The notes: generated from the sequence alone by a model not told the origin. A stretch of 32,000 bases of DNA from Thermomonas fusca DSM 15424 (GCF_000423885.1 NZ_AUIV01000002.1:1-32000), one strand, 5' to 3'; shown: positions 5,326 to 28,135, numbered from the stretch's first letter. A program made the numbers and translations.

Positions 5326-6099
5326 TCAGGGTCGTTTTGCGTTGCCTTCGAAACGGCCCTTCTCAAGCGGCGGAAGCTGTGCTAGGCAGCGATAGCCGTT
5401 GCGCATCAACGCATCGCCGCGCCGCACCAGGCGGCGCACCTTGGAGCGCAGGCCTCCGTCGGCGTACCAATCGGCCACAGCATCCGCACCGAATAAGCCT
5501 TCGCCAACCTCGCGCAAGGACGCGCCCGCAAGGGTTGCGTCGAGCGCCTGCAAGGTGTGCAGCTCCAGCAATGCGGCGGGCGTTGGCCGGGAATTGACGA
5601 TGAATAGGGCCGTGCCCAGCGAATGACTGCGCGCAGGCGCAACAGCACCGCCGCGATGGGCATAGGCGACGGCCATGCCGTCTTCCAGGCCGGGCGCCAG
5701 CGCGAAGCGCAAGCAATGGCCTGGGCTGCGAGCGATCAGCGCCAGCCCTTTGCCGTCGTGGAGCAGTTGCTTGTGGCCGGGAATGCGCCAGAACGCGAAA
5801 ACCGTGGCATCGAGTGGCGGATCGGCATCGGGATAGAGCTGCACCACAGCGGCATGGCCGGGCAACCAGGCTGGATGCGCGTCACGCGCGTCCAGCGCCG
5901 GATTTTCCAGCAGGCGCAGGCCCCAGCGATGCGCCGCTTGCTGTGTGCTTTCCGGTCGGCGATGGTGGCGCAGCCAGTCAAGGCGGTAATCGGGATGACG
6001 GCGCAGGTACTCCCAAGCCAGCGCGAGCGCGTCCAGCCACAAGACGTACAGGTAGGCCGCAGTCGGATACCAATGCGCGACGTGATGAGGATCGACCAT
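5326..6099 (-). CDS. DUF2285-type transcriptional regulator domain protein
   Basis: The N-terminal W..YLRRHP.YR motif and the C-terminal regulator region are typical of DUF2285 proteins of proteobacterial ICEs. Confidence 0.7.
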   Translation of the reverse strand: MVDPHHVAHWYPTAAYLYVLWLDALALAWEYLRRHPDYRLDWLRHHRRPESTQQAAHRWGLRLLENPALDARDAHPAWLPGHAAVVQLYPDADPPLDATVFAFWRIPGHKQLLHDGKGLALIARSPGHCLRFALAPGLEDGMAVAYAHRGGAVAPARSHSLGTALFIVNSRPTPAALLELHTLQALDATLAGASLREVGEGLFGADAVADWYADGGLRSKVRRLVRRGDALMRNGYRCLAQLPPLEKGRFEGNAKRP

Positions 6100-7017: not shown

Positions 7018-7308
7018 GTGGCGGCTCGGTACTCATTGGCGAAGGCGTTGAAGACGGTCAGAAAAGCGCGGGGCTTGAGCCAAGAAGCGTTTTCGGACGT
7101 GTCGAGCCGCACCTACATGAGCACCCTTGAGCGCGACCTTAAAAGCCCGACCTTGAACAAGCTGGCCGAGCTGTGCAAGGTCATGGAAGTGCATCCGCTC
7201 ACGCTGCTGACGCTGGCCTATGCCGGGGACAGCACGAGCAAGGCCGAGGAGTTGTTGGCGCAGGTGCGCCGTGAACTTGAGGCGGTATTGAATTCAGATG
7301 GAGATTGA
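7018..7308 (+). CDS. XRE-family helix-turn-helix transcriptional regulator
   Basis: LKTVRKARGLSQEAFSDVSSRTYMSTLERDLKSPTLNKLAELCKVMEVHPLTLL is a canonical Cro/C1 HTH. GTG start with AAGGGA upstream. Confidence 0.8.
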   Translation: MAARYSLAKALKTVRKARGLSQEAFSDVSSRTYMSTLERDLKSPTLNKLAELCKVMEVHPLTLLTLAYAGDSTSKAEELLAQVRRELEAVLNSDGD

Positions 7309-7316
7309 GAAGCGCA

Positions 7317-7880
7317 ATGGCATATAGAAATGGAAACTACACCGCCTTTTATGTTGCAGAGCCATTCAATCCCAGCTCGCTGGGCGCCAATGCGACAAAA
7401 GATTTTCAGTATTATAATGTCCTGCGGATGTGGAAAGGCGCTGATGCGACGTTCCCCTTCGTCGATTCGCACGATAAAACATACAGTGTCCGTGATGGCA
7501 GCGATTGGGAATACACCCTGAAACCGAGACTTAGGGAACGCCTTCGGAACTCGAAGAACATCATCCTCATATTGAGTTCGATCACGACCAACTCCCGTGC
7601 CCTCCGAGAAGAAATCGACTACGGGATCAACGACCAGGGGCTACCCGTCATCGTCGTCTACCCTGAATATTCCACCAAGGAAAGCCTGCTTATCGGTGGA
7701 TCATTGAAGCAGGCTGTCAAGAACCTGTGGGAAAATCTTCCGGTGCTCCGGGATTCGATGAGCAAAGTTCCTACGCTTCATGTTCCGATGGACAAGGCGC
7801 TCATTAAGAGTGCCTTGCAGGATGGTGGATTCATGGTTGGGAGTAAGAAGACCCCAGATATCTATAGGTACAACCCATAA
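7317..7880 (+). CDS. thsB: TIR-like (DUF1863/ThsB-type) protein, putative Thoeris ThsB
   Basis: MAYRNGNYTAFYVAEPF.., NIILILSSITTNSRALREEIDYG..GLPVIVVYP (beta-strand, then Glu, then a second strand) matches ThsB-type TIR-like domains. Lies immediately upstream of the Macro-TM gene. Confidence 0.75.
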   Translation: MAYRNGNYTAFYVAEPFNPSSLGANATKDFQYYNVLRMWKGADATFPFVDSHDKTYSVRDGSDWEYTLKPRLRERLRNSKNIILILSSITTNSRALREEIDYGINDQGLPVIVVYPEYSTKESLLIGGSLKQAVKNLWENLPVLRDSMSKVPTLHVPMDKALIKSALQDGGFMVGSKKTPDIYRYNP

Positions 7881-7913: not shown

Positions 7914-8750
7914 ATGGTGAAGGTCAACTTTTTTGACAAGCGGGTCATCAAGAAATTCCTTGAGGTCACCGCTGTCGTCAGCGGTACGCTGTCATTCGTG
8001 GTTATTTTTGTTGACGTCCCTGCCGAGTGGAAGCTGAAGGCTGGATTGGCTTTCTTGGCAATACTGGCACTCACCTACTTGGCGATATGGCTCTGGTCGA
8101 ACAACCTAAACAGTATCGACATCAATGTCGAGGGCAGCGATGTCGCGATCAAGACTGGCGATATTTTCCAGCAGCCTGGATTGAAGGCAATCGCCTTCAA
8201 TGAATATTTCGATACGCAGGTGGACAACAAGATAATTGGGGAGACTTCCCTCAACGGCGTTTTCATCCAGAAGCATCTCGGCGTCCCGCTCTCCGAGCTA
8301 GACCGTCACATCGAGGAATACGCTTTTGATAACAGCGAAGTCCTGGATGAAAACGAGGCCAGGAAACAGGGGAAGAAGAAAAGGTATCAGATTGGCACAA
8401 TCTGCCTATACAAAGACTACCTCCTGACCGCGTTCTCCAAGTTCGACGAGAACAACAAGGCGCTGCTGACAATGCCGGAGTACCTTGAGTTTCTCATCAA
8501 TTTCTGGGACAAGGTAAACAACATCTACGCCCAGCAAAGCGTATCTACCACGATCTTCGGTTCGGGAATAACGCGGATCAAGGGACACAAAAACATCTCC
8601 GACGAGGATCTCCTGAAGATAATGCTGTGGACGTTCAGAATCAGCGAAATGCGATTCAAGTACCCCGCGAAGCTGACCATCGTGATTCACGAAGACAAGA
8701 TTGACCAGATCAATCTTCTCGATATTAAATCCGCCAGGAACGGCGTGTAA
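7914..8750 (+). CDS. thsA: Two-TM plus Macro-domain protein, putative type II Thoeris ThsA
   Basis: Two hydrophobic helices (VTAVVSGTLSFVVIFV, AGLAFLAILALTYLAIWLW). These are followed by macro-like motifs GDIF..GLKAIAFNEYFD and STTIFGSGITR. Confidence 0.7.
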   Translation: MVKVNFFDKRVIKKFLEVTAVVSGTLSFVVIFVDVPAEWKLKAGLAFLAILALTYLAIWLWSNNLNSIDINVEGSDVAIKTGDIFQQPGLKAIAFNEYFDTQVDNKIIGETSLNGVFIQKHLGVPLSELDRHIEEYAFDNSEVLDENEARKQGKKKRYQIGTICLYKDYLLTAFSKFDENNKALLTMPEYLEFLINFWDKVNNIYAQQSVSTTIFGSGITRIKGHKNISDEDLLKIMLWTFRISEMRFKYPAKLTIVIHEDKIDQINLLDIKSARNGV

Positions 8751-10852: not shown

Positions 10853-10902
10853 GCGCCCACCGCGCCCAGGACGGAGCGGCCTGGGCGCGGTGCTGATCGC
10901 GG

Positions 10903-11082
10903 CTATTCCTTCGTCTCGATGATCCACCACACGGCCCGCGCCAAGGCGCAGCCCGTGACGGGGTGAATGTCGGTGAGGTCGGCGTATGCCGTCCAGCCCG
11001 AGGGCGGACGATAGCCGCACACGTCGCCTTCGCCGTGCCAGCGGCGGGCGCGTACCGTGCCGGGGGCGTAGATCGCCGCCAT
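10903..11082 (-). CDS. Possible small protein (59 aa) downstream of the ParB-like gene
   Basis: ORF MAAIYAPGTVRARRWHGEGDVCGYRPPSGW... Its composition is less Arg/Ala-biased than the surrounding spurious frames. There is no convincing RBS. Confidence 0.3.
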   Translation of the reverse strand: MAAIYAPGTVRARRWHGEGDVCGYRPPSGWTAYADLTDIHPVTGCALARAVWWIIETKE

Positions 11083-11170
11083 GCGCGGGCGGCTGGTGGT
11101 GGTGTGGGTGGCGGTTCTCCTTCTAGCGAAGCGCCTCGGTCGGGGCCGGGGCGCTTCCCTTCGGCGCGGG

Positions 11171-13246
11171 TCAAGCGGCCAGCGCCTCGGCGGGTTCATC
11201 CGCCATTGCTTCTGCATCCTCCGGGGCGTCCTGCTCCGGGCCTTCTTCCTGCGCGCCTTGCTGCGTTGCCTGCTGCGGACCTGCGACCTTGAAGATGGCG
11301 GGCATCCACCCCGTGCCATCCGCCAGCCGTTCGGCTTCGCTGGCAATGTCGGCCTTCTTGAGCTTCGCCAGCCGGTTGACCTGCTCGGGCGCGTACTCGC
11401 CCACGGCATCCAGAATCACGGCCTTGGAAACGTGCTTGAAGTAGCCTTCTGCGGTTGGCTTCCACCATGCGGCCATATCGAGGCCCACGGCCTGCGCCAG
11501 TTCCTCGCCGCGTTGGTGCGTCGTGGCGCGGGGCGTCACCACGTCCACCGTTGCGGCAACGCATACCGCCAGCAGGCGTACCAGCTCGTCTTGCGGCTTC
11601 GCCAGCAGCACGGCGAACAGTTCGGCGCTGTCCTCCGGCAAGCCTTCACCGGCCACCTGTTGCAGTTCGCGCAGCGCCACGGCGGCAAGCGATTGCGGCC
11701 AGTCCGGGGCCATGCCTTCCAGTCGGTCTTGCACCGTGAGGCGCACGCCCAGCGGCAGATTGTGGCCGTAATGGCTCCCCTGCAAGACAGTCTGCACCAT
11801 GCCATGCACCACGGCAGCCAGCGCCGCTTGCGGATGCCGGGCCACTTCGATTTGCAGCGCGGCGGTGCGATGGGCGCTCAACCGTTGCGCCAGCCGGTCG
11901 GACATGGCTGCGGTCTTGGGCTGACTGTCGTCGTCTCCGTCCTCGCCTTCGTCATCGTTATCGGCATCCTCGCCGCCGGAACCTTGCCGCAGCCGTTCCA
12001 GCGTGCGCAATGCCTTGGCCTCAGCCTCGCGCATCAGGCCGCGATGAATGACGGCCTCGCCATTACGGTCGATGGTGACGATGGCACCGGCTGCAGCCTT
12101 CACGTTCGAGCCGTAGCCTTGCAAACTATCTTCCAGCGCCTGCAACTGCTCGCCCAGGGCTTCGCCTTCCTCCTGCAAGGCGTCGGCCTTATCCTCGTCG
12201 TCGGCATCCATCGCCGCATCCACGGCTTCACCGATGGCCCGCATCTTCTCCTGCAGCCGCTCGATGCGCTGCGCCTCGCGCTTGGACGGCTCGCGCCGTT
12301 CCCTCGGTGCGCGCTGGAAGACGTGCAGGTCGGCATGGGTCACGCCCGGCGTGGCATCCACCCAGGCCCAGCCCTCGGCCTTCACCTCGGCGGCAATGCC
12401 CGCCAGCCGGTCTTGTGCCAGCTTGTCCAGCAGCGCGGAATCGATCAGATACACGCCCGCGTCACCTTCCGCGAACAGGTCACGGCGCACGCCACCGCCT
12501 GCGGCTTCGTAGGTATCCAGTCCCACGAATCGCACCAGCGGGTGCCGGTTCGCGTCAATCTCGCGCTCGGTGAGGCGTTCGCGCAAGTTGGACGGGTGCC
12601 GCTGCCAAGTCGGCGCATCGTAGAACGCGCTTTCCTGCGCGGCGTGGTCGTCGGTGATGGCAAGGGCCATCAATTGATCGAGTGTGACGGCATCGGCGCG
12701 ATAGTCGGCCATCAGGCGCGGCGAGACGTTCGCCAGCTTCAAGCGGCGCTGCACCACCAGCGGCGTCACGCTGAAATCCGCCGCAATGTCCTCGATGGGC
12801 CGACCTTCGGCCACCAGCGCGGCGAACGCCTCGAACTGGTCTGCCGCGTGCATGGCTTCGCGCTGCACGTTCTCGGTGAGGCTGGCGGTACGGGCGGTGC
12901 CATCGGCTACCAGCAGGCAAGGCACCTCCCAATCTTTGGCGATGCGGTGCTTCTTTGCCAGTAGCTTGAGGGCTGCGAAGCGACGGCCACCTGCCACGAC
13001 TTCGTAATGCTCGCCATCGGCGGCGGCGATTACGATCAGGTTTTGCAGCAAGCCCACGCGCTGAATGGACGCGGTCAGTTCGGGGATGGACATGCGCGGG
13101 GTCTTGCGCACGTTGCGCCCCGTGGGGCGCAGCACCAGCCGCGACAGGGGAACCAGAATCAGGTTCTTGCTCGGGTCGGCGGCTTCCAGCGGAATAGCGG
13201 CGGCGGTGTTGATGGCGCGGGCTTCGGTTTGGGTAATGGCGTTCAT
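11171..13246 (-). CDS. ParB/Spo0J-family N-terminal domain protein with long acidic C-terminal extension (691 aa)
   Basis: Has LVLRPTGRNVRKT...IQRVGLLQNLIV...YEVVAGGRRFAALKLL (ParB box) and TENVQRE. GGAG lies upstream of ATG 13246. Confidence 0.85.
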   Translation of the reverse strand: MNAITQTEARAINTAAAIPLEAADPSKNLILVPLSRLVLRPTGRNVRKTPRMSIPELTASIQRVGLLQNLIVIAAADGEHYEVVAGGRRFAALKLLAKKHRIAKDWEVPCLLVADGTARTASLTENVQREAMHAADQFEAFAALVAEGRPIEDIAADFSVTPLVVQRRLKLANVSPRLMADYRADAVTLDQLMALAITDDHAAQESAFYDAPTWQRHPSNLRERLTEREIDANRHPLVRFVGLDTYEAAGGGVRRDLFAEGDAGVYLIDSALLDKLAQDRLAGIAAEVKAEGWAWVDATPGVTHADLHVFQRAPRERREPSKREAQRIERLQEKMRAIGEAVDAAMDADDEDKADALQEEGEALGEQLQALEDSLQGYGSNVKAAAGAIVTIDRNGEAVIHRGLMREAEAKALRTLERLRQGSGGEDADNDDEGEDGDDDSQPKTAAMSDRLAQRLSAHRTAALQIEVARHPQAALAAVVHGMVQTVLQGSHYGHNLPLGVRLTVQDRLEGMAPDWPQSLAAVALRELQQVAGEGLPEDSAELFAVLLAKPQDELVRLLAVCVAATVDVVTPRATTHQRGEELAQAVGLDMAAWWKPTAEGYFKHVSKAVILDAVGEYAPEQVNRLAKLKKADIASEAERLADGTGWMPAIFKVAGPQQATQQGAQEEGPEQDAPEDAEAMADEPAEALAA

Positions 13247-16653: not shown

Positions 16654-16741
16654 TGAAATCGGGTATCTTTAGAGCCAACAGATTCCCGAATTGGGTCTCG
16701 CCCGGTCTGATAGTCAGAACACCGCAATTGCGAGGAAAGGC

Positions 16742-17884
16742 ATGCCAGCGCTATATCAACTTGCCCTGCTCGGCACCCCAACGGCAGCTCAAATTTCCGA
16801 ACTTGAGGAAGTTGTCGGAAAGGCTGTCGGCATGTTCAATTTGCGGTTGGGGCATGAGATTGGATGGGAGGTTTGTCCCGATGAATTCAATCCAGACCAA
16901 CAGCGATCGTCTGCGGCGGCATTTTTCGGAGGTCATGAGCCTCCCCTTGCGAATGTGGCAAGGCTCCTGGCGCGAGGCATCCCGCTGCTCCCAGTCGCCT
17001 CTGACATCAATCGAGTCGGCGCAGAAATCCCCGCCTTGCTGCAACCGCTCAACTGCTTGGCATACACCGCTGGCGGGGCGCAACGTGTCGCAACTGCTTT
17101 GCTGGAATGTGCAGGGCTCCTTCCTCGACAGCGCCGGGTGTTCGTAAGCTATCGGCGGGGCGAGGCTAGGGAAGCTGCCTTGCAGTTGTTCGATGCGCTG
17201 TCTGCTCGGCTATTCGATGTGTTTCTCGATACACATGGCATTCCACCTGCTGAAGATTTTCAGACCATGCTATGGCATCGGCTTTGTGACTCGGATGTCC
17301 TGCTGATGCTCGACACCCCAGGATACTTTGAAAGCCGTTGGACGAGTGCGGAATTCGGCCGCGCTCTGGCCAAAGGCATCAGCGTCTTGCGGGTGGGGTG
17401 GCCGGATACAACGCCTTCTGCGCGTACGGCGACGGCCAGTCGGGCGGAACTGCTACCCGAAGAAGTCGATCCGGCGACCGGACGCATCGCAGACGGCGCG
17501 GTGGATCGCATCTGTCTTCAGTTGGAGGAAGTTCGCAGCCAGAGCCATGCGGTTCGCTCTGTCAATCTCGTGAGCAATCTGCGCAACGCTATTCAAACAA
17601 TCGGCGGCCAAGTTGTCGGAGTGGGCGCCAACAGAGCTGTTTATGTCCAACTGCCGGATGGGCGGAATGTAGTTGTTTATCCAACAGTCGGAGTTCCCAC
17701 GTCAACTACATTGCACGATGCGTCTACGAATTCACCGGAACAATCCGTTGCCGTTGTCTACGATCACGTAGGCCTGCATCCTAGGTGGCTGGGCCATCTG
17801 GACTGGCTGGGTCAGCACATTCACTCCGCCAGGTGGGTTAAAGCCAGCGAGGCGGGTTGGCAATTCGCTGACTGGGCGGCGTAG
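16742..17884 (+). CDS. TIR-domain protein (380 aa) with unassigned N- and C-terminal regions
   Basis: The central RVFVSYRRGEAREAALQLFDAL....VFLD....., DVLLMLDTPGYFESRWTSAEFGRALAKGISVLRV gives the TIR strand-helix pattern with an S-x-W-x-x-x-E glutamate. GAGGAAAGG lies before ATG 16742. Confidence 0.8.
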   Translation: MPALYQLALLGTPTAAQISELEEVVGKAVGMFNLRLGHEIGWEVCPDEFNPDQQRSSAAAFFGGHEPPLANVARLLARGIPLLPVASDINRVGAEIPALLQPLNCLAYTAGGAQRVATALLECAGLLPRQRRVFVSYRRGEAREAALQLFDALSARLFDVFLDTHGIPPAEDFQTMLWHRLCDSDVLLMLDTPGYFESRWTSAEFGRALAKGISVLRVGWPDTTPSARTATASRAELLPEEVDPATGRIADGAVDRICLQLEEVRSQSHAVRSVNLVSNLRNAIQTIGGQVVGVGANRAVYVQLPDGRNVVVYPTVGVPTSTTLHDASTNSPEQSVAVVYDHVGLHPRWLGHLDWLGQHIHSARWVKASEAGWQFADWAA

Positions 17885-17886
17885 CC

Positions 17887-18474
17887 ATGAGCGCAATATT
17901 CCTCTCGGCCAGCGTGCCACTTGTTGGACGTGGCACCTACCACGAAACTGCCAATCCATTTCTCATCCAATGTGCGGTGAGAGAACTGGTCATAGCAGTC
18001 ATTCGCCAGCACAAGATCGTCTGGGGTGGGCATCCTGCGATTACCCCGATGATTTGGAGCATATGTGAAGACTTGGGCGTCGATTACTCGCAGTCTGTCG
18101 TCTTGTATCAGAGCACGTTCTTTGCAGATGTGTTCCCTGAAGAGAACAAGCATTTCCAGAATGTAGTTTTCACTGACGCTGTCCCCAATGACAAGGCGGC
18201 GAGCTTGCTTGTCATGCGTGAAAAGATGCTCTCGCGTGCGGACCTAAGCGCTGCTGTGTTTATTGGTGGAATGGATGGGGTAGAAACCGAGCATGAGCTT
18301 TTCAGGCGATTCCATCCTGCAGCCAAGGTGCTCCCGGTGTCCTCGCCGGGCGGAGCGGCGTTGAATCTAGCCAAGGACCATGGCTATTTCACCGGTGAAG
18401 CGCTCGTTGATGTGGACTTCGCTCAGCTCTTCCATACGCACCTGGCGGTGCCCTTGGCTGGCAAACCAAGTTAA
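17887..18474 (+). CDS. SLOG/LOG-superfamily Rossmannoid protein (TIR-associated SLOG, TPALS-like)
   Basis: Has IFLSASVP.., VWGGHPAITP and VFIGGMDGVETEHELF (the GGxxGxxxE signature). The ATG is 2 nt after the upstream stop. Confidence 0.65.
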   Translation: MSAIFLSASVPLVGRGTYHETANPFLIQCAVRELVIAVIRQHKIVWGGHPAITPMIWSICEDLGVDYSQSVVLYQSTFFADVFPEENKHFQNVVFTDAVPNDKAASLLVMREKMLSRADLSAAVFIGGMDGVETEHELFRRFHPAAKVLPVSSPGGAALNLAKDHGYFTGEALVDVDFAQLFHTHLAVPLAGKPS

Positions 18475-18520
18475 TTCATTTCTCGGCGCTGGCCTCTAGA
18501 ACATCAACCGAGGATTGTTC

Positions 18521-19006
18521 ATGCCACGGAAAGTCTTCTACAGCTTTCACTATCAGCGCGACAGTTGGCGCGCCTCCAAGATACGCAATATTGGCGTTGT
18601 AGAGGGCAACCCGTCAGCGACCGATAACAAATGGGAAGAGGTGAAGCGAGGCGGAGACGCCGCGATCAAGCGCTGGATCGACGACCAATTGCAAGGGCGG
18701 ACTTGCACCATTGTTTTGATTGGCACGGAAACGGCAAATCGCCCCTGGATTCGATATGAGATCGAGCAATCATGGAACAGCGGAAAGGGGCTCTTGGGGA
18801 TACGTATCCACAAACTGCTGGACCACAACCAGCAACCATCGGTGGCGGGGGAAAATCCATTCGATTCATTTACCTTGAATGACGGTAGAAAACTATCCAC
18901 CGTCGCCCGCGTCTACGATCCGCCAGGGACCAGCAGTAGCGCGGTCTACACCTCTATCAGCGACAACTTGTCGAACTGGATCGAAGCAGCGATCGCCGCG
19001 CGCTAG
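18521..19006 (+). CDS. TIR-like (DUF1863/ThsB-type) protein (161 aa)
   Basis: Has KVFYSFHYQRDSWRASKIRN.., CTIVLIGTETANRPWIRYEIEQSW..GKGLLGIRI. GAGGA lies 6 nt upstream of ATG 18521. Confidence 0.75.
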   Translation: MPRKVFYSFHYQRDSWRASKIRNIGVVEGNPSATDNKWEEVKRGGDAAIKRWIDDQLQGRTCTIVLIGTETANRPWIRYEIEQSWNSGKGLLGIRIHKLLDHNQQPSVAGENPFDSFTLNDGRKLSTVARVYDPPGTSSSAVYTSISDNLSNWIEAAIAAR

Positions 19007-19009
19007 AAG

Positions 19010-19684
19010 TCAGAGCACTTCGTCAAACAACGATCCGGTACTCATGGGGTACCCATAGAGTTCCGAGATTTGCGACTGGAATTGTGTCTGTCCACCGTAG
19101 CTGGGGTGCCTCACGCAAATCACCGGCACAGCATCTGTGATGCGATGAGCTGCAGCGGCGGCATCGTTGCCGATGGCGACGATGCGAGAAGGCTTCAGCA
19201 GGACAATGAGTTGCTGGAGCAGTTCTTCGCCTGCTCGCCTTTCTTGCGCGTTGTGCTGGCGGTTAGTAAACGGATCTCCGGATTCATGCGGATGAAGGGG
19301 AAAGACGTTCCAAAGGAAGATGCGAGCATCAATGTGTTCCAGCATGCCCCATATGACCGCCGCAGTTCGCTCGGCTACAGCGCTTCCTATCGTGGGCCGC
19401 TCTGCGACCAGATCGAGATTCCAGCGCTTAGCGTGCTGGCCCATGTGCACGTCATCAGTCAGGGCTAAACCAGTACGGCGCCCTCCGCGATATCCGAGAT
19501 CCCTTCCGATCCAGATGGCATCTACAGACTCCTCGGTTGCACGACGCAGCATGGCGGAGAGTGCTGCAGCGCGGCGCCGTGGCGCATCGCGCCGATCATG
19601 GACTTCACATCGATCCGAATACGGATTGAAGCAGTCTTCGAATTGCAGCGAAGCAACTGCCTCAACGAATGGATGGATCTTCAT
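19010..19684 (-). CDS. Uracil-DNA-glycosylase-superfamily protein
   Basis: Motif A-like IWIGRDLGYRGGRRTGLALTDD, then NVFPLHPH and motif B-like VRHPSYGG. Start overlaps the upstream stop (ATGA). Confidence 0.7.
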   Translation of the reverse strand: MKIHPFVEAVASLQFEDCFNPYSDRCEVHDRRDAPRRRAAALSAMLRRATEESVDAIWIGRDLGYRGGRRTGLALTDDVHMGQHAKRWNLDLVAERPTIGSAVAERTAAVIWGMLEHIDARIFLWNVFPLHPHESGDPFTNRQHNAQERRAGEELLQQLIVLLKPSRIVAIGNDAAAAAHRITDAVPVICVRHPSYGGQTQFQSQISELYGYPMSTGSLFDEVL

Positions 19685-20817
19685 TTTTCGGACTCAAGTG
19701 ACATGTATTTGATGGTGCGTTGTTCTCGGTTTCCAATGATCCAGCCGCCTTGATTTGCCTTGAGCTGTCGGAAAACAGCATACCCTTCCAGGATAGCTTT
19801 TTCCCAGAGCTTCAGCGGGCATTTCTCTACTTCATAACCGCTCACAAACTCGCCGATGGTTTTGAGAATTCCGAGTGAGACTTTCTCCTGATTCTCGAAG
19901 AAATTCAGTTCTTTGGCTCTTGAAAAAATCCAGGCAGCAACTCCTTCCTCAACGACGATGGCTCGGCCACTGTCCTGCTCTTCATCGAATTTCGGATTGC
20001 TCTTCCGCTTGTGCCTGATCAATGCCCGCATCACGGGCGACCAGTGAAGGATCGCCGCGTTAGCAAAATGGAAAACGTCATGGAACCGGTAGCCATCGCG
20101 GTCGGCAATGTTGTCAGTCAAAGGGTCTCCAATGAACACTCCATTCCATTGGAGATAGCTTTTGCCACTACCTCGTTGGTTGACGCGGATTCTGAATTCT
20201 CTGGGCAACTGTTCCTCGATTCCAAATTTACTATCGAAATCAAGGTCAAGCAGATCATCTGCTTGTGGCTCCAAGAACGCACCGCGAGCTTTACGAAGGT
20301 TGGAGCGAGCCACTTCCGAAAATGCTAGCTCGGCCGCATGGATTGCATCCAAGTAAGCCCGTGCGAACGCGACCAATTCAGTGCGCGCAGGGGTACTTCC
20401 CAATAGCGCTGCGGCTGACTGCCCCAAACGTACAAGAGTAGTGTCTAACGATGCAGGCGCAGCAATAGGCACTGCGATATAGGCCATTGCACCTTCGGCG
20501 ATATCACTTGCAGCACCAACATTCTTGAAATTTCCGTGATTGGCCGCTTCCCCGAAGATCTCATCGAGAGGAACATTCAAGCGCCTGCAGATTGCAGCCA
20601 GGTACCAAAGGGTGTCGCCAAATTCTTCTTCCGCAGCTTTCTTAAAGCCAGGGTATGCCGATTTGTCACGAACATGTTTTTTAACCGTGGCCATTATTCC
20701 GCCAACTTCTCCGTACAGTCCTTGGAGAACCGGATTGAAGTCGCTCGGATTGAGCACGTCCGTGGCTGCAATTTCTGCAGCGTAATCCGAAAGCAAGAGG
20801 GAGCCTTCCTTTTTCAT
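19681..20817 (-). CDS. MazG-like nucleoside triphosphate pyrophosphohydrolase domain protein with an about 190-aa C-terminal extension
   Basis: N-terminal GLYGEVGGI...AAEEEFGDTLWYLAAICRRLNVPLDEI is the EExxD metal-binding helix pair of all-alpha NTP-PPases. The C-terminal half (DGYRFHDVFHF.., IVVEEG) is unassigned. Confidence 0.7.
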   Translation of the reverse strand: MKKEGSLLLSDYAAEIAATDVLNPSDFNPVLQGLYGEVGGIMATVKKHVRDKSAYPGFKKAAEEEFGDTLWYLAAICRRLNVPLDEIFGEAANHGNFKNVGAASDIAEGAMAYIAVPIAAPASLDTTLVRLGQSAAALLGSTPARTELVAFARAYLDAIHAAELAFSEVARSNLRKARGAFLEPQADDLLDLDFDSKFGIEEQLPREFRIRVNQRGSGKSYLQWNGVFIGDPLTDNIADRDGYRFHDVFHFANAAILHWSPVMRALIRHKRKSNPKFDEEQDSGRAIVVEEGVAAWIFSRAKELNFFENQEKVSLGILKTIGEFVSGYEVEKCPLKLWEKAILEGYAVFRQLKANQGGWIIGNREQRTIKYMSLESEK

Positions 20818-20820
20818 CGG

Positions 20821-21447
20821 TCACCTGCGAAGCGTCAGCCATTCAAAGGGGGCGCCTTGGTAGCCGCTCACGGCCAAGCTGCGTATCCAATGCTCAAGAT
20901 TCGCGACCAATTGCGCATCGTCAAAGGTGGTGAGACCTATTCCAGTTTTACATAGAGGACGTCCCTGCTGATCATGCAACTCATTGGGAAACTCAGGCCC
21001 CTCCCCCCCAAAATATACGAAATCGTTGCTGATTAAAACCCTGTTGACGCCCGTATCACGAGCAACGTGATCAGGGTTCAGAGAGCCATCAGGGCGGGAG
21101 TGGAACGAATCGCGCTGTTGCCAAGCAGCCCCAGCCGCAACTCTGAAATAAATGTTGTCCCCGCAACTTTGCTTCCGACTGCCATTGCGGTACGGCTTCT
21201 TGGATTCAAAACGCGGGTCTCGGCCGTACTCGTCAAATGTCATTGCCTCGGTGACCCGCATCGCATAGACCAGGTGCCCACCGCGTCGAACACTTTGATC
21301 ATTGCTTCCGCTGCCAACCACCCAATCACCAATGTTGGCGCTTCTTCGGATGCTGGGTTTGCAAGTCGCGAGCGTGCAGTAGCTGTAAAAGGGGTTGGGC
21401 GCAAAACCACTGTCGTACCGCACGACATAGGAGTGAATACGTGCCAT
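20821..21447 (-). CDS. Nmad2-like (nucleotide-modification-associated domain) protein
   Basis: The N-terminal HSYVVRYDSGFAPNPF..YCTLATCKPSIRR pattern matches my memory of the Nmad2 family. This assignment is tentative. Confidence 0.5.
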   Translation of the reverse strand: MARIHSYVVRYDSGFAPNPFYSYCTLATCKPSIRRSANIGDWVVGSGSNDQSVRRGGHLVYAMRVTEAMTFDEYGRDPRFESKKPYRNGSRKQSCGDNIYFRVAAGAAWQQRDSFHSRPDGSLNPDHVARDTGVNRVLISNDFVYFGGEGPEFPNELHDQQGRPLCKTGIGLTTFDDAQLVANLEHWIRSLAVSGYQGAPFEWLTLRR

Positions 21448-21914
21448 CAGCAGGGATGCCGCTTGAGTGGAACCGGGTCGCAGGCACCGCCGTCAGGCTT
21501 TTCCCACGAATCCTTTCCGTTGATCGCGTCGATGATTGAATCACCGTTCCACCCAACCAGTGCGTCCGCATGTTCTTTCAGCGCATCCGGCAGGTCGCAT
21601 TCCTTTTCGCCATGCTCCCAAACACCAACAATGCGCTTGCCCTGTTTGGCCGCGTATTCGATTTCCCAGTTCACCCAATCGCTGTTCTTGGTTTGGGGTG
21701 AGACATAGCAAATGAACACCCCAGCCCAATTGATGGCAGGCGCAAGGATCTGCGTCTTGATGTAGTGCTCATCAGTGGCATTGTTGAACTTTCCTGTGTG
21801 GATGGAGGAATCCCGGACTTCCACCCCCTTCGGCGCCAACAAATCCTTGAGCTTCTGGAGCCCATGATCGTCCTTATGGACATGGCTGATGAATACGTTC
21901 CTTTTGTCTGCCAC
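21447..21914 (-). CDS. Stand-alone TIR-domain protein (155 aa)
   Basis: Has NVFISHVHKDD..L.KLKDLL, VFICYVSPQTKNSDWVNWEIEYAAKQGKRIVGVW (S-x-W-x-x-x-E). GTG start with GGAGG 6 nt upstream. Confidence 0.8.
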   Translation of the reverse strand: MADKRNVFISHVHKDDHGLQKLKDLLAPKGVEVRDSSIHTGKFNNATDEHYIKTQILAPAINWAGVFICYVSPQTKNSDWVNWEIEYAAKQGKRIVGVWEHGEKECDLPDALKEHADALVGWNGDSIIDAINGKDSWEKPDGGACDPVPLKRHPC

Positions 21915-22182
21915 CTGTCACCTCCATGGTTTCGCATGTTTTGATGGATCGTAACCGGGTTTACCGCCGGCGTGGTAGGGGCTCCTGGCCAGCTTGAGGT
22001 CGAACTGCTGCCGGACGGGCCGAGAGTCAAAATCCATCGCTTTGGGCGAGGCGAAGCGCGCTGGTTGGGACATGACGCTTAACCGAGTGCGCACGAAGCC
22101 GTAGACCTCCTATGCCCTCCTACGCCACAACAGGTTGTGCCGATAGGTACTGAAATTCACCATATCGCCATGCAGCGTATTC

Positions 22183-22566
22183 ATGGAGTTCGAGGTGAAA
22201 ACCCTATCGCACCTATCCAATGTGCTCGAGGCCGTCCCCGGCCAGTCTCTCCCTTTGCCTGGGACGGAGGCCTACGAGGCGCTGCCACAGTTCCCCAAGC
22301 GCAGTCCACTTCCATTTCGGCGCACCATCCGCCGTCATGAGTTGCGTCAGATCGTCCCCTTGGCCGAAACGACGATCTACGAAATGGAGCGTCGCGGCGA
22401 GTTCCCTCGGCGTTTCAATCTGACGCCGCGCTGCGTGGTGTGGGACCTGGCCGAGGTGGAGGCCTGGATCGAGGAGCGCAAGCAAGCCCCTCGCATCAGC
22501 GCCGCCAAGCCGGATGTCCACCTGCGAAAAACCCGCCCTGTTCGGGCGGGTTCCGGTCGGGAATGA
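22183..22566 (+). CDS. alpA: AlpA-family phage/island regulatory protein (start uncertain: ATG 22183 or GTG 22195)
   Basis: The core LRQIVPLAETTIYEMERRGEFPRRFNLTPRCVVWDLAEVEAWIEERK is the AlpA HTH. The N-terminal about 55 aa is unusual for the family. Confidence 0.7.
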   Translation: MEFEVKTLSHLSNVLEAVPGQSLPLPGTEAYEALPQFPKRSPLPFRRTIRRHELRQIVPLAETTIYEMERRGEFPRRFNLTPRCVVWDLAEVEAWIEERKQAPRISAAKPDVHLRKTRPVRAGSGRE

Positions 22567-22580
22567 GGCTGGCGACGGCC

Positions 22581-23105
22581 TCATTCAACGAGAGCTTCCA
22601 GCTCGTCGGAAGCTGAGCGCGATAACCGCCGCCCCTCCTTGACCACGTTGACCTGCAAGGCAACGCACGCCACCTCCAGAACGTCCATGGCCAGCGAGTA
22701 GCTACCCTTTGCCTGCAGCCAGGCCAGCACATCCGCCAAGTGCCAGATCGACGCGCTGCCCTCATGCACCGGCGCTGGGAAGCTGCCCGGATGGGCCAGC
22801 ATCAGCTTGCGCATGTTCTGCCGCGACACGCCCACGATGTCGGCCACGTCGGTCAGCCCAACCAGATCCGGTGCGACTTCGATCAGCCTGGCCGCTGGCA
22901 CCGCGCTCCGCACGTCGGCCAACGCGCTGCGCACAGCCGCGTCCGCACTGTCCGCCTCTCGGGTGAACTCCAGCGCGAGCCGCCCCGGCTGCCCGATGCC
23001 GACCAGGGCATCGTCGCACCCGGCCTCGCCCAGACGCTCGACCAGTGCATCCGGGTCACGGTCATCGTCGGTGAGTTGGTATTTCAGGGTGAAGGTGTAT
23101 TCCAT
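22581..23105 (-). CDS. HTH DNA-binding protein, antitoxin-like (174 aa)
   Basis: MEYTFTLKYQL.. N-terminal alpha/beta domain plus LTDVADIVGVSRQNMRKLMLAHPGSFPAPV....SIWHLADVLAWL HTH. Begins 4 nt after the upstream gene. Confidence 0.6.
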   Translation of the reverse strand: MEYTFTLKYQLTDDDRDPDALVERLGEAGCDDALVGIGQPGRLALEFTREADSADAAVRSALADVRSAVPAARLIEVAPDLVGLTDVADIVGVSRQNMRKLMLAHPGSFPAPVHEGSASIWHLADVLAWLQAKGSYSLAMDVLEVACVALQVNVVKEGRRLSRSASDELEALVE

Positions 23106-23109
23106 CGTG

Positions 23110-23385
23110 CTACTCCTCGGCATCGTCGGCTGCCTCCTGCTGCTTGCGGTGCGTCGTGCAGTTGTCCACGACTCGCCGCAAGGCACGCGCATGGTTGCCA
23201 GGGTTCTTCGGCGTACTCCACACGCTGGTGATACAGAACTCGCCGCAGCGACACTCCGCATCGTTGTACGGACAATAAATCCGCCCCCAGGCGTGGCTGC
23301 CACCGACTTCCACACGCCAGCCCTGCCCTTCGGCGTGCCTGAGTGCTTCCTCGACTTCTTTCTTCGGATGAGAGGACCGGGCCAT
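23110..23385 (-). CDS. Small Cys/His-rich protein (91 aa), possible toxin partner
   Basis: Starts MARSSHPKKEVEEALRHAEGQGWRV...GSHAWGRIYCP..DAECRCGEFCITSVWSTPKNPGNHA. GGAG lies 7 nt before ATG 23385. Confidence 0.55.
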   Translation of the reverse strand: MARSSHPKKEVEEALRHAEGQGWRVEVGGSHAWGRIYCPYNDAECRCGEFCITSVWSTPKNPGNHARALRRVVDNCTTHRKQQEAADDAEE

Positions 23386-23412
23386 CAACAGTCTCCAGTA
23401 TGAGAATACTTA

Positions 23413-23445: not shown

Positions 23446-24702
23446 TCAGGCCATTGCGCTCAACACCGGCACGATCACGTTGTCCGGCATCAGCTTCGGC
23501 ACATAGGTCTGCCCGTCGATCCAGGCATCGACCATGTTGGCCCACTCCTGCAGCATGTGGCGCCGCTGCTCGGCGTACTCGGCCTTGTTGTAGATCGAGC
23601 GCGAGGAACGCCCTTCTTCGTGCGCAAGGCACTTCTCGATCCAGTCTCGGTTGAACCCGATCTCGTTGAGCAACGTCGAACCTGTGCGGCGCAGATCGTG
23701 GACGGTGAACGGCTCCAGCGGCAGGCCTGCGGCCTTGGCCCGCTGCGCCACGATCTGCGTGACCCGATTGAGAGTCGCGTGAGACATGCAATGGTCTGAG
23801 TCGTAGCGCGATGGCAGCACAAACTTCGAGCCGGCCGCGCAAGTGTGCAGTGCCACCAGAATGTCCAGCGCCTGGCGCGACAGGTAGACCACATGTGGGT
23901 TGCGCCCCTTCATCCGCTGCTTCGGGATGGTCCAGGTCGCGTTCTCGAAATCGACCTCGTCCCAGGTGGCCTCGATCAGCTCGCTCTTGCGTACCAGCGT
24001 CAGCAGGATCATTCGCAACGCCAGCCGGATGGTCGGATAGGTGGCCACCGACTCCATCTGCCGCGACATCAGACGGATCTCCAAGGGCGACAAGGCACGG
24101 TCCTTGGGCACGAAGGTCGCAATCGACGCAGCGCCCACGTTGGCCGCCGGGTTGTCCACCTTCTCCCCATGCAGGATGGCGAAGGCATAGACCTGCTTCA
24201 CGATGTCGCGAATGTGCACCGCGGTGGCCGGGGCGCCCCGCCCTTTCACCTTGCCGCACAAGGCGCGCAAGTCGTCGGCGGTGATTTCGTTGAGCAGGCG
24301 GTTCTGGAAGGCCGGCAGGATGTCCCGATCGACGATGCTCTTGCGCATCGCTCGCGTGGTGTCGGCCATCCGGGCACCGGCCATCCACTGGGCGGTCATG
24401 TCGCCGAAGTTCTTGGCGGCGGTCAGGCGGCGCTTCTCGCGCTGCTTCTCATGCGCCGGGGACTTGCCCTGGGCGACGGCCTTCTTGGCGTCCAGCAGCT
24501 TTTCGCGGGCCATCGCGAGCGAAATGCCGGACGGCCCATACCGTCCAATGGTCAGCGTCTCGCGCCGGCCGTTGAGACGGTAATCGTAGCGGAAGGTGAC
24601 GGTACCGGTGGTTGATACCGTTACGTACATGCCGTCGCGGTCGGAAGCCTTGTAAATCTTGGACTTAGGCTTGAGATTGCGTAGTGCGGTGTCGGTAAGC
24701 AT
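23446..24702 (-). CDS. int: Tyrosine recombinase/integrase, P4-like (DUF4102 N-terminal domain)
   Basis: Has MLTDTALRNLKPKSKIYKASDRDGMYV.V...G...FRYDYR..GRRETLTIGRY, and C-terminal HDLRRT...L and LAHE....YN catalytic-region motifs. Confidence 0.92.
   Translation of the reverse strand: MLTDTALRNLKPKSKIYKASDRDGMYVTVSTTGTVTFRYDYRLNGRRETLTIGRYGPSGISLAMAREKLLDAKKAVAQGKSPAHEKQREKRRLTAAKNFGDMTAQWMAGARMADTTRAMRKSIVDRDILPAFQNRLLNEITADDLRALCGKVKGRGAPATAVHIRDIVKQVYAFAILHGEKVDNPAANVGAASIATFVPKDRALSPLEIRLMSRQMESVATYPTIRLALRMILLTLVRKSELIEATWDEVDFENATWTIPKQRMKGRNPHVVYLSRQALDILVALHTCAAGSKFVLPSRYDSDHCMSHATLNRVTQIVAQRAKAAGLPLEPFTVHDLRRTGSTLLNEIGFNRDWIEKCLAHEEGRSSRSIYNKAEYAEQRRHMLQEWANMVDAWIDGQTYVPKLMPDNVIVPVLSAMA

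Positions 24703-26644: not shown

Positions 26645-28135
<1,491 letters not shown>

Follow-up and report, generated by a model that had tools for sequence, protein, structure and literature searches.

A conserved TIR, Nmad2, MazG/MazG_C and UDG cassette in a mobile defence island of Thermomonas fusca: a candidate Thoeris-like anti-phage system

What might be the role of four tightly packed genes encoding a TIR protein, an Nmad2 protein, a MazG-type nucleoside triphosphate pyrophosphohydrolase and a member of the uracil-DNA glycosylase (UDG) superfamily, and do they constitute a system at all? This question is raised by a locus of Thermomonas fusca DSM 15424 located in NZ_AUIV01000002.1:1-32000 (assembly GCF_000423885.1), a stretch of 32,000 nucleotides (nt) which was analysed as a whole and is referred to below as the window. 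The four genes do form a genuine unit of inheritance, and we tentatively interpret this unit as a mobile Thoeris-like anti-phage cassette in which a signal made by the TIR protein would be combined with three nucleotide or DNA-base enzymes acting as effectors, a reading which we consider possible and which should be regarded as provisional.

All four open reading frames (ORFs) are found where the first-pass annotation, made from the sequence alone, had placed them (Table 1), and the three junctions are as it had described them: the TIR and Nmad2 genes share 1 nt in a TGATG stop/start overlap, a gap of 3 nt separates Nmad2 from MazG, and MazG and UDG overlap by 4 nt (ATGA). These gene models are also those of standard annotation, because the exact sequences of all four proteins occur in public databases as MULTISPECIES Pseudomonadota entries, the third (WP_028838254.1) bearing the RefSeq product name 'nucleoside triphosphate pyrophosphohydrolase family protein' and the fourth (WP_083960884.1) that of 'uracil-DNA glycosylase'. 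A scan for promoters and terminators resulted in counts no different from those expected after shuffling.

Since identical copies of a locus are not independent evidence, conservation was assessed in a one-genome-per-species collection, from which 80 loci with 43–99% MazG identity were drawn using a profile of diverse homologues; these 80 rank highest among at least 548 genomic matches, and deeper clades differ from them. The loci belong to Pseudomonadota, Bacteroidota, Acidobacteriota, Latescibacterota, Planctomycetota, Chloroflexota, Thermodesulfobacteriota, Nitrospirota, Binatia and Gemmatimonadota. Among the 72 loci with enough flanking sequence on either side, 56 have TIR-Nmad2-MazG/MazG_C-UDG strictly in this order and in one direction, an arrangement that spans more than 10 phyla, the rest being mostly interrupted or rearranged; when the loci were dereplicated at 85% identity, the count was 39 of 60 lineages. 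All TIRs located directly upstream of Nmad2 are members of the family of the window's 155-amino-acid (aa) TIR, and the median intergenic distances are 0.5 nt (TIR-Nmad2), 3 nt (Nmad2-MazG) and -4 nt (MazG-UDG). The reciprocal test, anchored on the TIR and performed on metagenome contigs, found Nmad2-MazG-UDG at fixed spacing in 62 of the 64 contigs with enough downstream sequence. The concern that these genes might not co-occur in other genomes, raised together with the initial proposal, is clearly refuted by these counts, and the arrangement goes well beyond a coincidence. The 120 closest MazG/MazG_C relatives, from Ralstonia, Xanthomonas, Methyloversatilis, Stutzerimonas, Limnobacter and others, are 86–100% identical across genera, indicating that horizontal spread has been recent. 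Its carriers include integrative elements and conjugative plasmids, and its hosts include Pseudomonas aeruginosa, the Burkholderia cepacia complex, Serratia and Ralstonia.

The TIR, Nmad2 and UDG domain calls made initially hold against Pfam (ThsB_TIR, Nmad2 and UDG), and the possibility that the catalytic motifs would prove degenerate on alignment can be set aside, as the catalytic residues of TIR and MazG and the putative ones of UDG are kept in the family alignments. The TIR protein matches ThsB_TIR (E=5e-22) and, over its full length, the PADLOC ThsB model PDLC00418 (E=7e-93), and is the only one of the four cassette proteins that PADLOC recognises, the other three being without a model there. 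It is therefore a ThsB-family protein with a conserved catalytic Glu, as is typical of Thoeris, this residue (E84, in the context W-E-I-E) being kept in 30 of 31 family sequences. The core of the protein (approximately residues 1-104) is followed at the C-terminus by a conserved tail, approximately 50 aa long, which extends beyond the Pfam core and ends in an almost invariant Cys155; between residues 95 and 155, W99, C106, W122, R152 and Cys155 are near-invariant. A metal site or disulfide common to this tail and to cysteines C24 and C29 of Nmad2 is conceivable. TIR homologues that escape Pfam were also found directly upstream of Nmad2 in more distant loci: in a Rhizobium plasmid clade with 38% MazG identity, in which Nmad2, MazG/MazG_C and UDG are kept and a calcineurin-like phosphoesterase is inserted, the small protein at this position is a cryptic TIR (L091:2473-3018, plus strand; hhalign 97%) which retains the Glu, and a second cryptic homologue was identified at L085:6959-7405 (plus strand; hhalign 94%).

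The Nmad2 protein matches Pfam PF18753 with E=1.6e-74 (250.2 bits against a cut-off of 26.1), its residues 1-204 aligning to positions 1-197 of the 200 in the model, and the family is widespread, with at least 8,000 candidates at E<1e-5. Two family alignments agree on the invariant residues D12, G-F-A-P-N-P-F, C24, C29, K30, G-D-N-I-Y, S114, H116 and D131, a set that would be compatible with an enzyme as well as with a reader. Single-sequence and profile searches against solved structures gave no match for this protein. An AlphaFold2 model was built from 69 diverse sequences, having a predicted local distance difference test score (pLDDT) of 83 and a predicted TM-score of 0.83. In Foldseek searches of the PDB (best E=0.085) the matches were predominantly YTH, ASCH/TRIP4/EOLA1, EVE (PH1033), the McrB N-domain, MJECL36 and the ATP-sulfurylase N-domain, and in BFVD (best E=7e-3, probability 0.96) ASCH, 'activating signal cointegrator', EVE and DUF3850, with TM-scores of 0.4–0.5. 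Nmad2 is tentatively predicted by the model to adopt a PUA/ASCH-like beta-barrel fold; PUA-like barrels bind or process modified bases and nucleotides. No relative of this Nmad2 clade was found in 50,697 phage genomes (tblastn) or in PHROGs, and the clade is thus cellular.

The third gene had been described as having a MazG-type N-terminus and an unassigned second half; the former is borne out by a structure profile search and by the fold, while the latter is in fact Pfam MazG_C. Residues 1 to approximately 185 received no Pfam call, and the family profile of this half matched the solved structures of iMazG (2Q73, E=1e-6) and DCTPP1 (E=1e-5), as well as YpjD and Bacillus MazG. The AlphaFold2 model (pLDDT 91) gave Foldseek matches to iMazG with a probability of 0.97–0.99 and also to DCTPP1, YpjD and dimeric dUTPases. 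E37, D68 and K176 are invariant and E64, E65 and N173 are kept at 90% or more, so that the four-helix fold and the E..E-E-x-x-D metal-binding motif which define the superfamily are both present. The MazG_C half matches PF18722 with E=9e-83 (276.9 bits against a cut-off of 29.7; residues 193-373 on positions 5-188 of 190), and its own set of invariant polar residues (D241, H246, D247, H250, R264, K270, R271, D282, E291 and E329) argues for catalysis or tight ligand binding. A single-sequence search of this half against solved structures was uninformative, and it was not found in the 50,697 phage genomes (tblastn). That it might be a diverged second MazG domain is unsupported (hhalign probability 1.3%). 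In the DefensePredictor study it is labelled a 'predicted nucleotide kinase' (PMC13092281). Relatives of the MazG/MazG_C protein number 3,682 at E<1e-5 and form 1,541 clusters at 50% identity.

The UDG-superfamily protein exceeds the Pfam threshold (E=2.5e-7, 31.3 bits against a cut-off of 24.3), with the NCBIfam family-4 models lying far under theirs (15.8 bits against 250). Its family keeps D62 (G-R-D-L-G-Y), N126 (W-N-V-F), N141/R142...E148 and H193 (R-H-P-S-Y-G-G) invariant. A single-sequence search against solved structures was uninformative, and the best match of the family profile was a weak one, to the Sulfolobus tokodaii family-4 UDG (StoUDG, 4ZBX, E=0.16); in this weak alignment N126 falls on N82 of StoUDG and the family-4 N-R..E motif is matched. 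In StoUDG, N82 reads the Watson-Crick face of uracil (PMC11078745). Judging from these residues, the cassette protein is likely to be glycosylase-competent, and an Asn at position 126 would be typical of uracil/thymine-type rather than cytosine-type recognition. The UDG gene is intact in all ten identical islands; its apparent decay in four of them (L002, L003, L006 and L010, in which no gene was called) proved to be a gene-calling artefact.

A uracil-type chemistry is also suggested by one variant of the cassette and by the composition of NTTI. In an Arenicellales metagenome-assembled genome (MAG) a 5-hydroxymethyldeoxyuridine (5-hmdU) DNA kinase (HMUDK_hel, E=2e-108; L055:9174-10301, plus strand) occupies the place of UDG after TIR-Nmad2-MazG. 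NTTI, a validated defence system of Escherichia coli, comprises a 5-hmdU DNA kinase, a thymidylate synthase, a deoxynucleoside monophosphate (dNMP) kinase and Nmad2, according to the DefensePredictor paper (PMC13092281); it resembles the cassette in combining Nmad2 with pyrimidine or DNA-base enzymes, the 5-hmdU DNA kinase being the one also present in the Arenicellales variant, and differs from it in having no TIR, MazG/MazG_C or UDG. As both UDG and the kinase that replaces it act on uracil-type DNA bases, and as NTTI pairs Nmad2 with such a kinase, uracil or 5-substituted uracil is indicated as the chemical theme.

The setting of the cassette in the window is that of a mobile defence island: its GC content is 52–58%, against a background of 65–71%, it is part of an element integrated next to guaA, and it is accompanied by type II and type III Thoeris and by the candidate pair PDC-M06, whose genes lie between AlpA and the integrase. 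The type II Thoeris pair, which is complete, is found in a second low-GC patch. The type III Thoeris (16691-19006, plus strand), a system reportedly described by van den Berg et al. in 2024, had been missed by the first-pass annotation despite being directly adjacent. It is convergent with the cassette, and the stop of its 163-aa TIR gene is only 3 nt from the UDG stop, so that the two operons have no space for terminators between them. None of the four cassette proteins matches the NCBIfam ThcA or ThcB4 models at E<=0.1. The window contains five TIR genes in total.

Table 1. Genes and other features of the window, with the cassette listed first
Feature	Coordinates	Strand	Details
Gene 1, stand-alone ThsB-type TIR	21447-21914	minus	155 aa, GTG start
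Gene 2, Nmad2 protein	20821-21447	minus	208 aa
Gene 3, MazG fused to MazG_C	19681-20817	minus	378 aa
Gene 4, UDG-superfamily protein	19010-19684	minus	224 aa
Shine-Dalgarno GGAGG	21921-21925	minus	6 nt upstream of the TIR GTG start; read from the sequence
ThcB4	16691-17884	plus	NCBIfam 474 bits, cut-off 220
ThcA, SLOG cluster 3	17887-18474	plus	NCBIfam 261 bits, cut-off 110
163-aa ThsB-type TIR	18515-19006	plus	PADLOC ThsB PDLC00433, E=4e-72; also matches PDC-M50B
Type II Thoeris ThsB TIR	7305-7880	plus	PADLOC PDLC00421, E=6e-80
Type II Thoeris Macro-ThsA	7914-8750	plus	PDLC00413, E=1e-127; Pfam ThsA_Macro, E=3e-63
RovC-like/DUF7011 transcription-factor protein	5326-6099	minus	near the type II Thoeris patch
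AlpA-like gene	22183-22566	plus	
PDC-M06B	22581-23315	minus	PADLOC candidate pair, residues 71-243, E=5e-85
PDC-M06A	23110-23388	minus	PADLOC candidate pair, E=3e-55
P4-type integrase	23446-24702	minus	
guaA	25004-26578	minus	
guaB	26645-28117	minus	

The association with other Thoeris systems extends well beyond the window. Further TIR genes are located within 8 kb of the cassette in 25 of the 39 strict-order lineages, with none in the other 14. Of 44 contigs of the close clade, 33 carry the ThcA/ThcB4 pair in addition to the cassette, at 37–97% identity and in three different placements (convergent downstream, same-strand downstream and same-strand upstream). This linkage survives rearrangement, which suggests that the cassette is functionally coupled to type III Thoeris. 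Type III Thoeris is its most frequent partner, making a signalling role of the TIR likelier than that of a metabolic NAD-processing enzyme. Other neighbours are TIR_2-SLOG-cluster2 fusions (L054, L071 and, at 10855-12909 on the minus strand, the Arenicellales locus L055), a TIR-caspase pair (L077) and SIR2-STALD ThsA. In Serratia inhibens (L172:1352-7627, plus strand) TIR, Nmad2, MazG/MazG_C, UDG, SIR2-STALD (type I ThsA-like), ThcB4 and ThcA follow one another in the same direction, so that three kinds of Thoeris-related effector are present in this seven-gene array, which appears to be one operon. That different Thoeris types may share an island has been described (Yirmiya et al. 2025, bioRxiv 10.64898/2025.12.03.692087). 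The two modules are nevertheless separable, as type III loci in Inhella and Ampullimonas have 3–4 TIR genes and ThcA with no Nmad2-MazG-UDG, and the cassette, being found by itself in about one third of lineages, would work on its own.

Of two further leads, one was downgraded and the other rejected. One ORF in L046 (6231-7340, plus strand), located at the position of the cassette TIR and preceded by two ThcB4-like genes, consists of a ThcA-type SLOG cluster 3 domain and ThsB_TIR, and could have served as a Rosetta stone. No second fusion was found among the best 120 homologues, however, and this single case may be rare or an assembly artefact. The recurrent TIR_2 neighbours of approximately 415 aa were considered as ThcB4 orthologues and rejected (BLASTP E=0.33).

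If the cassette is indeed a Thoeris-like system, it could operate as follows. By analogy with characterised Thoeris, the TIR protein would sense infection and convert NAD+ into an ADP-ribose-derived signal. Nmad2 would be the best candidate for the subunit that binds a ligand or this signal, and the TIR product might, by conjecture, activate the other three proteins via Nmad2 or MazG_C. The MazG half, whose family membership is not in question, would hydrolyse (d)NTPs to (d)NMP and pyrophosphate, and MazG_C would provide either a second phosphoryl-transfer step or regulation of MazG. The UDG-fold protein would act on a pyrimidine-type base, presumably uracil or 5-substituted uracil, which it would excise from DNA, leaving abasic sites. 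Upon infection the dNTP pool would be drained and the replicating phage DNA would become full of abasic sites, bringing phage replication to a stop. Signals may also be shared between the cassette and neighbouring TIR systems, above all type III Thoeris. The initial suggestion of a defence directed at nucleotides or DNA bases fits the PUA/ASCH-like fold of Nmad2, the exchange of UDG for a 5-hmdU kinase and the precedents set by Brig1 and Brig2, UDG-fold proteins which defend against phages with modified bases, modified thymidine among them; the mechanism is one that we infer.

A number of observations weigh against this interpretation. Searches with Pfam, PADLOC and NCBIfam detected no SLOG, Macro or SAVED signal-binding domain in Nmad2, MazG/MazG_C or UDG, and for this reason the link from signal to effector is a conjecture. 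The assignment of Nmad2 to the PUA-like folds is built on sub-threshold Foldseek matches (best E=7e-3), and the MazG_C half obtained no Foldseek match in the whole-chain search of the gene 3 model. The Pfam match of the UDG protein spans residues 107-200 only, and its motif A is in register with the G-Q-D-P-Y-H of Escherichia coli Ung at a probability of 0.35%, which is not significant. In the TIR-like protein of L085 the catalytic Glu is replaced by Ala, and deeper clades have MazG-UDG without TIR or Nmad2; TIR catalysis may thus be dispensable in some lineages. Finally, in the accessible part of a survey of 29 putative Thoeris types, the present effector set is not named (Yirmiya et al. 2025).

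The most serious competitor, which we nonetheless regard as unlikely, is a constitutive restriction of modified bases in which signalling has no part. MazG would, like DCTPP1, destroy the modified dNTPs of the phage, UDG would, like Brig1 or Brig2, excise those modified pyrimidines that had been incorporated, Nmad2 would handle the released base or nucleotide, and the TIR would be either a back-up NADase causing abortive infection or an enzyme triggered by the excision products. Nmad2, MazG_C and HMUDK_hel are said to belong to the enzyme set of thymidine hypermodification, reportedly outlined by Iyer et al. in 2013 and Lee et al. in 2018. The substitution of a 5-hmdU DNA kinase for UDG in L055, the examples of Brig1 and Brig2, the presence of DCTPP1 among the closest solved relatives of the MazG half, a PUA/ASCH-like fold of the kind typical of modified-base readers, and the MazG-UDG pairs that occur without a TIR in deep clades are all in keeping with it. 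This explanation does not account, however, for the fact that approximately 85–97% of the loci of the clade begin with a translationally coupled gene for a ThsB-type TIR whose Glu is intact, nor does it show why the cassette clusters with other TIR/SLOG systems; moreover, enzymes harmless to unmodified host DNA would need no sensor.

It may also be asked whether the 155-aa TIR belongs to the neighbouring type III Thoeris instead, Nmad2-MazG-UDG being an unrelated three-gene system. Type III Thoeris does use several TIR proteins (Yirmiya et al. 2025), canonical loci having 3–4 TIRs where the module in the window has only two of its own, and PADLOC places the family of this TIR under ThsB. The TIR gene is, however, joined to Nmad2 by the 1-nt overlap, with a median gap of 0.5 nt across 66 of 66 loci, the cassette is found in 14 of 39 lineages without any other TIR or SLOG gene, and neither this TIR family nor Nmad2-MazG-UDG is present in canonical type III loci. 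Even in the distant plasmid clade, which has no ThcA, a cryptic TIR is still joined to Nmad2, and we therefore consider it improbable that the TIR is a component of type III Thoeris.

A role subordinate to Thoeris would be another way of accounting for the persistent co-localisation with ThcA/ThcB4 in three arrangements and for the proximity of SLOG-cluster2, ThsA and caspase Thoeris genes. The cassette would then be an accessory that matures or degrades the ADP-ribose-type nucleotides made by TIR proteins, and would tune a neighbouring Thoeris or prevent autoimmunity. A single SLOG-TIR fusion at the TIR position (L046) and the fact that type III Thoeris signalling is uncharacterised (Yirmiya et al. 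2025) leave some space for such a function. The fusion is a singleton, however, natural type III Thoeris loci exist without the cassette, and about one third of lineages have the cassette alone. Also, action on free nucleotides is not known for any UDG-fold enzyme. We regard an accessory role as improbable, too.

A related scenario, to which we likewise assign little probability, treats the cassette as a sensor of non-self DNA chemistry. UDG or MazG would free a modified pyrimidine of the phage, Nmad2 would capture it, and the TIR would turn it, for instance by base exchange or conjugation, into a base-ADP-ribose alarm which also activates neighbouring effectors such as ThcA; a precedent for the reaction of the TIR is the conjugation of histidine to the ADP-ribose of NAD+ in type II Thoeris. 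Such a scheme would account for the obligatory presence of the TIR and also for a linkage to type III Thoeris that withstands rearrangement.

Less probable still is a modification of the host's own DNA or nucleotides by base exchange, a pathway that had initially been listed as an option, in which the glycosylase removes a base and a modified one is installed. The Pfam name 'nucleotide modification associated domain' and the ties of these families to DNA-hypermodification enzymes elsewhere agree with it, but the conserved cassette includes no transferase, base-synthesis or ligase/AP-processing gene, the Nmad2 clade and MazG_C are found in none of the 50,697 phage genomes searched with tblastn, and the setting is one of TIR-associated defence islands; we thus find no support for it. 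A housekeeping function in nucleotide-pool sanitation and uracil repair, as the RefSeq product names would have it, is scarcely credible for genes which are linked to a TIR gene, lie in a low-GC mobile island beside an integrase, are spread patchily with 86–100% identity across genera and include a UDG that scores 15.8 bits against the NCBIfam family-4 cut-off of 250.

Returning to the Thoeris-like reading, the question arises of how far the cassette has already been described. The first-pass annotation knew of no system with this architecture, which is out of date: the DefensePredictor study (Science 2026, PMC13092281, Fig. 6F and fig. S12B) includes a predicted system consisting, by its figure legends, of the same set of domains (MazG, MazG-C, NMAD and UDG), explicitly not experimentally validated and found in defence islands in some cases; for several of the domains it names Burroughs et al. 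2015 (NAR 43:10633) as having made the prediction earlier. The accessible part of that paper gives no conservation statistics, type III Thoeris link or Nmad2 fold, and WP_028838254.1 and WP_083960884.1 were not found among the rows of its tables that are listed there.

Thoeris is among the closest known systems. Its types I-XI (Yirmiya et al. 2025) share with the cassette a small stand-alone ThsB-family TIR with the Glu, encoded by the first gene, as well as a location in defence islands, clustering with other Thoeris types and horizontal mobility; the difference is that Thoeris has one effector protein, whereas the cassette has three enzymes without a recognised signal-binding domain. Brig1 and Brig2 (PMC11078745; bioRxiv 10.1101/2025.10.29.685425) are, by their descriptions, similar in having a UDG fold and in occurring in defence islands and on mobile elements. 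The closest solved relative of Brig1 is StoUDG 4ZBY, and the entries 4ZBX, 4ZBY and 4ZBZ also top the profile search with the cassette UDG. Brig1 has Glu where the cassette family has Asn126, and it lies beside genes for an ADP-ribosyl glycohydrolase and a SIR2 protein rather than for MazG or Nmad2 (PMC11078745). Brig2 targets phages with hypermodified thymidine (bioRxiv 10.1101/2025.10.29.685425), which fits the putative Asn-type pocket of the cassette UDG. Both act as single genes, in contrast with the cassette glycosylase, which is the last of a four-gene operon. Finally, PUA-Calcineurin-CE-HAD combines a PUA-like sensor of modified nucleotides with a dNTP-hydrolysing effector, which is MazG-like in rare variants (bioRxiv 10.64898/2026.01.15.699771); its proteins and architecture are otherwise different, it has no TIR and no glycosylase, and the PUA likeness of Nmad2 is a structural prediction.

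The cassette is thus a putative TIR/Thoeris-type system with an unprecedented multi-enzyme effector set, already predicted in the literature. To that prediction the present analysis adds the two-way quantitative linkage of four genes across phyla, the association with type III Thoeris that persists through rearrangement, a lead to a PUA/ASCH-like fold in Nmad2, the replacement of UDG by a 5-hmdU kinase and the cryptic TIRs of distant clades. Should the Thoeris-like reading be true, no earlier defence would have linked a TIR of the Thoeris type with both a DNA glycosylase and an NTP pyrophosphatase. TIR nucleotide signalling and the attack on bases and nucleotide pools, which have so far been separate, would thereby be joined, and Nmad2 and MazG_C, two orphan families that are widespread, would acquire a function. 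The cassette also offers a handle on type III Thoeris signalling. In view of its clinical hosts and its mobility, it may matter when phages are chosen for therapy, above all those with modified thymidine or uracil-containing DNA.

With regard to the rest of the island, the ten contigs with an identical MazG share an element which comprises guaB-guaA, the integrase, two small genes, AlpA, the cassette, ThsB/SLOG/TIR_2, RadC, DUF2958, DUF932 and ParB, the leftward genes from RadC to ParB looking like the backbone of an integrative conjugative element. The integrase-guaA junction is present in seven of these ten (L001, L002, L005-L008 and L010), and L010 is 100% identical to the window over 14.2 kb. 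There is no tRNA gene in the window, and several large ORFs at 1-5 kb and 8.8-10.7 kb have no Pfam match.

Outside the cassette clade the MazG/MazG_C protein is found in other company. A Burkholderia glumae plasmid has the arrangement DUF4031-MazG/MazG_C-UDG, and in Streptomyces a shorter MazG_C protein adjoins a 'nucleotide kinase domain' gene and a pair of helix-turn-helix (HTH) and ImmA genes. Judging from the arrangements in deeper clades, MazG/MazG_C-UDG is the deepest core, and the addition of TIR-Nmad2 marks a large clade. HTH and ImmA/IrrE (Peptidase_M78) pairs repeatedly adjoin MazG/MazG_C at such loci (L057, L064, L076, L175 and L176), and in two Thermodesulfobacteriota MAGs its neighbour is Ppx/GppA.

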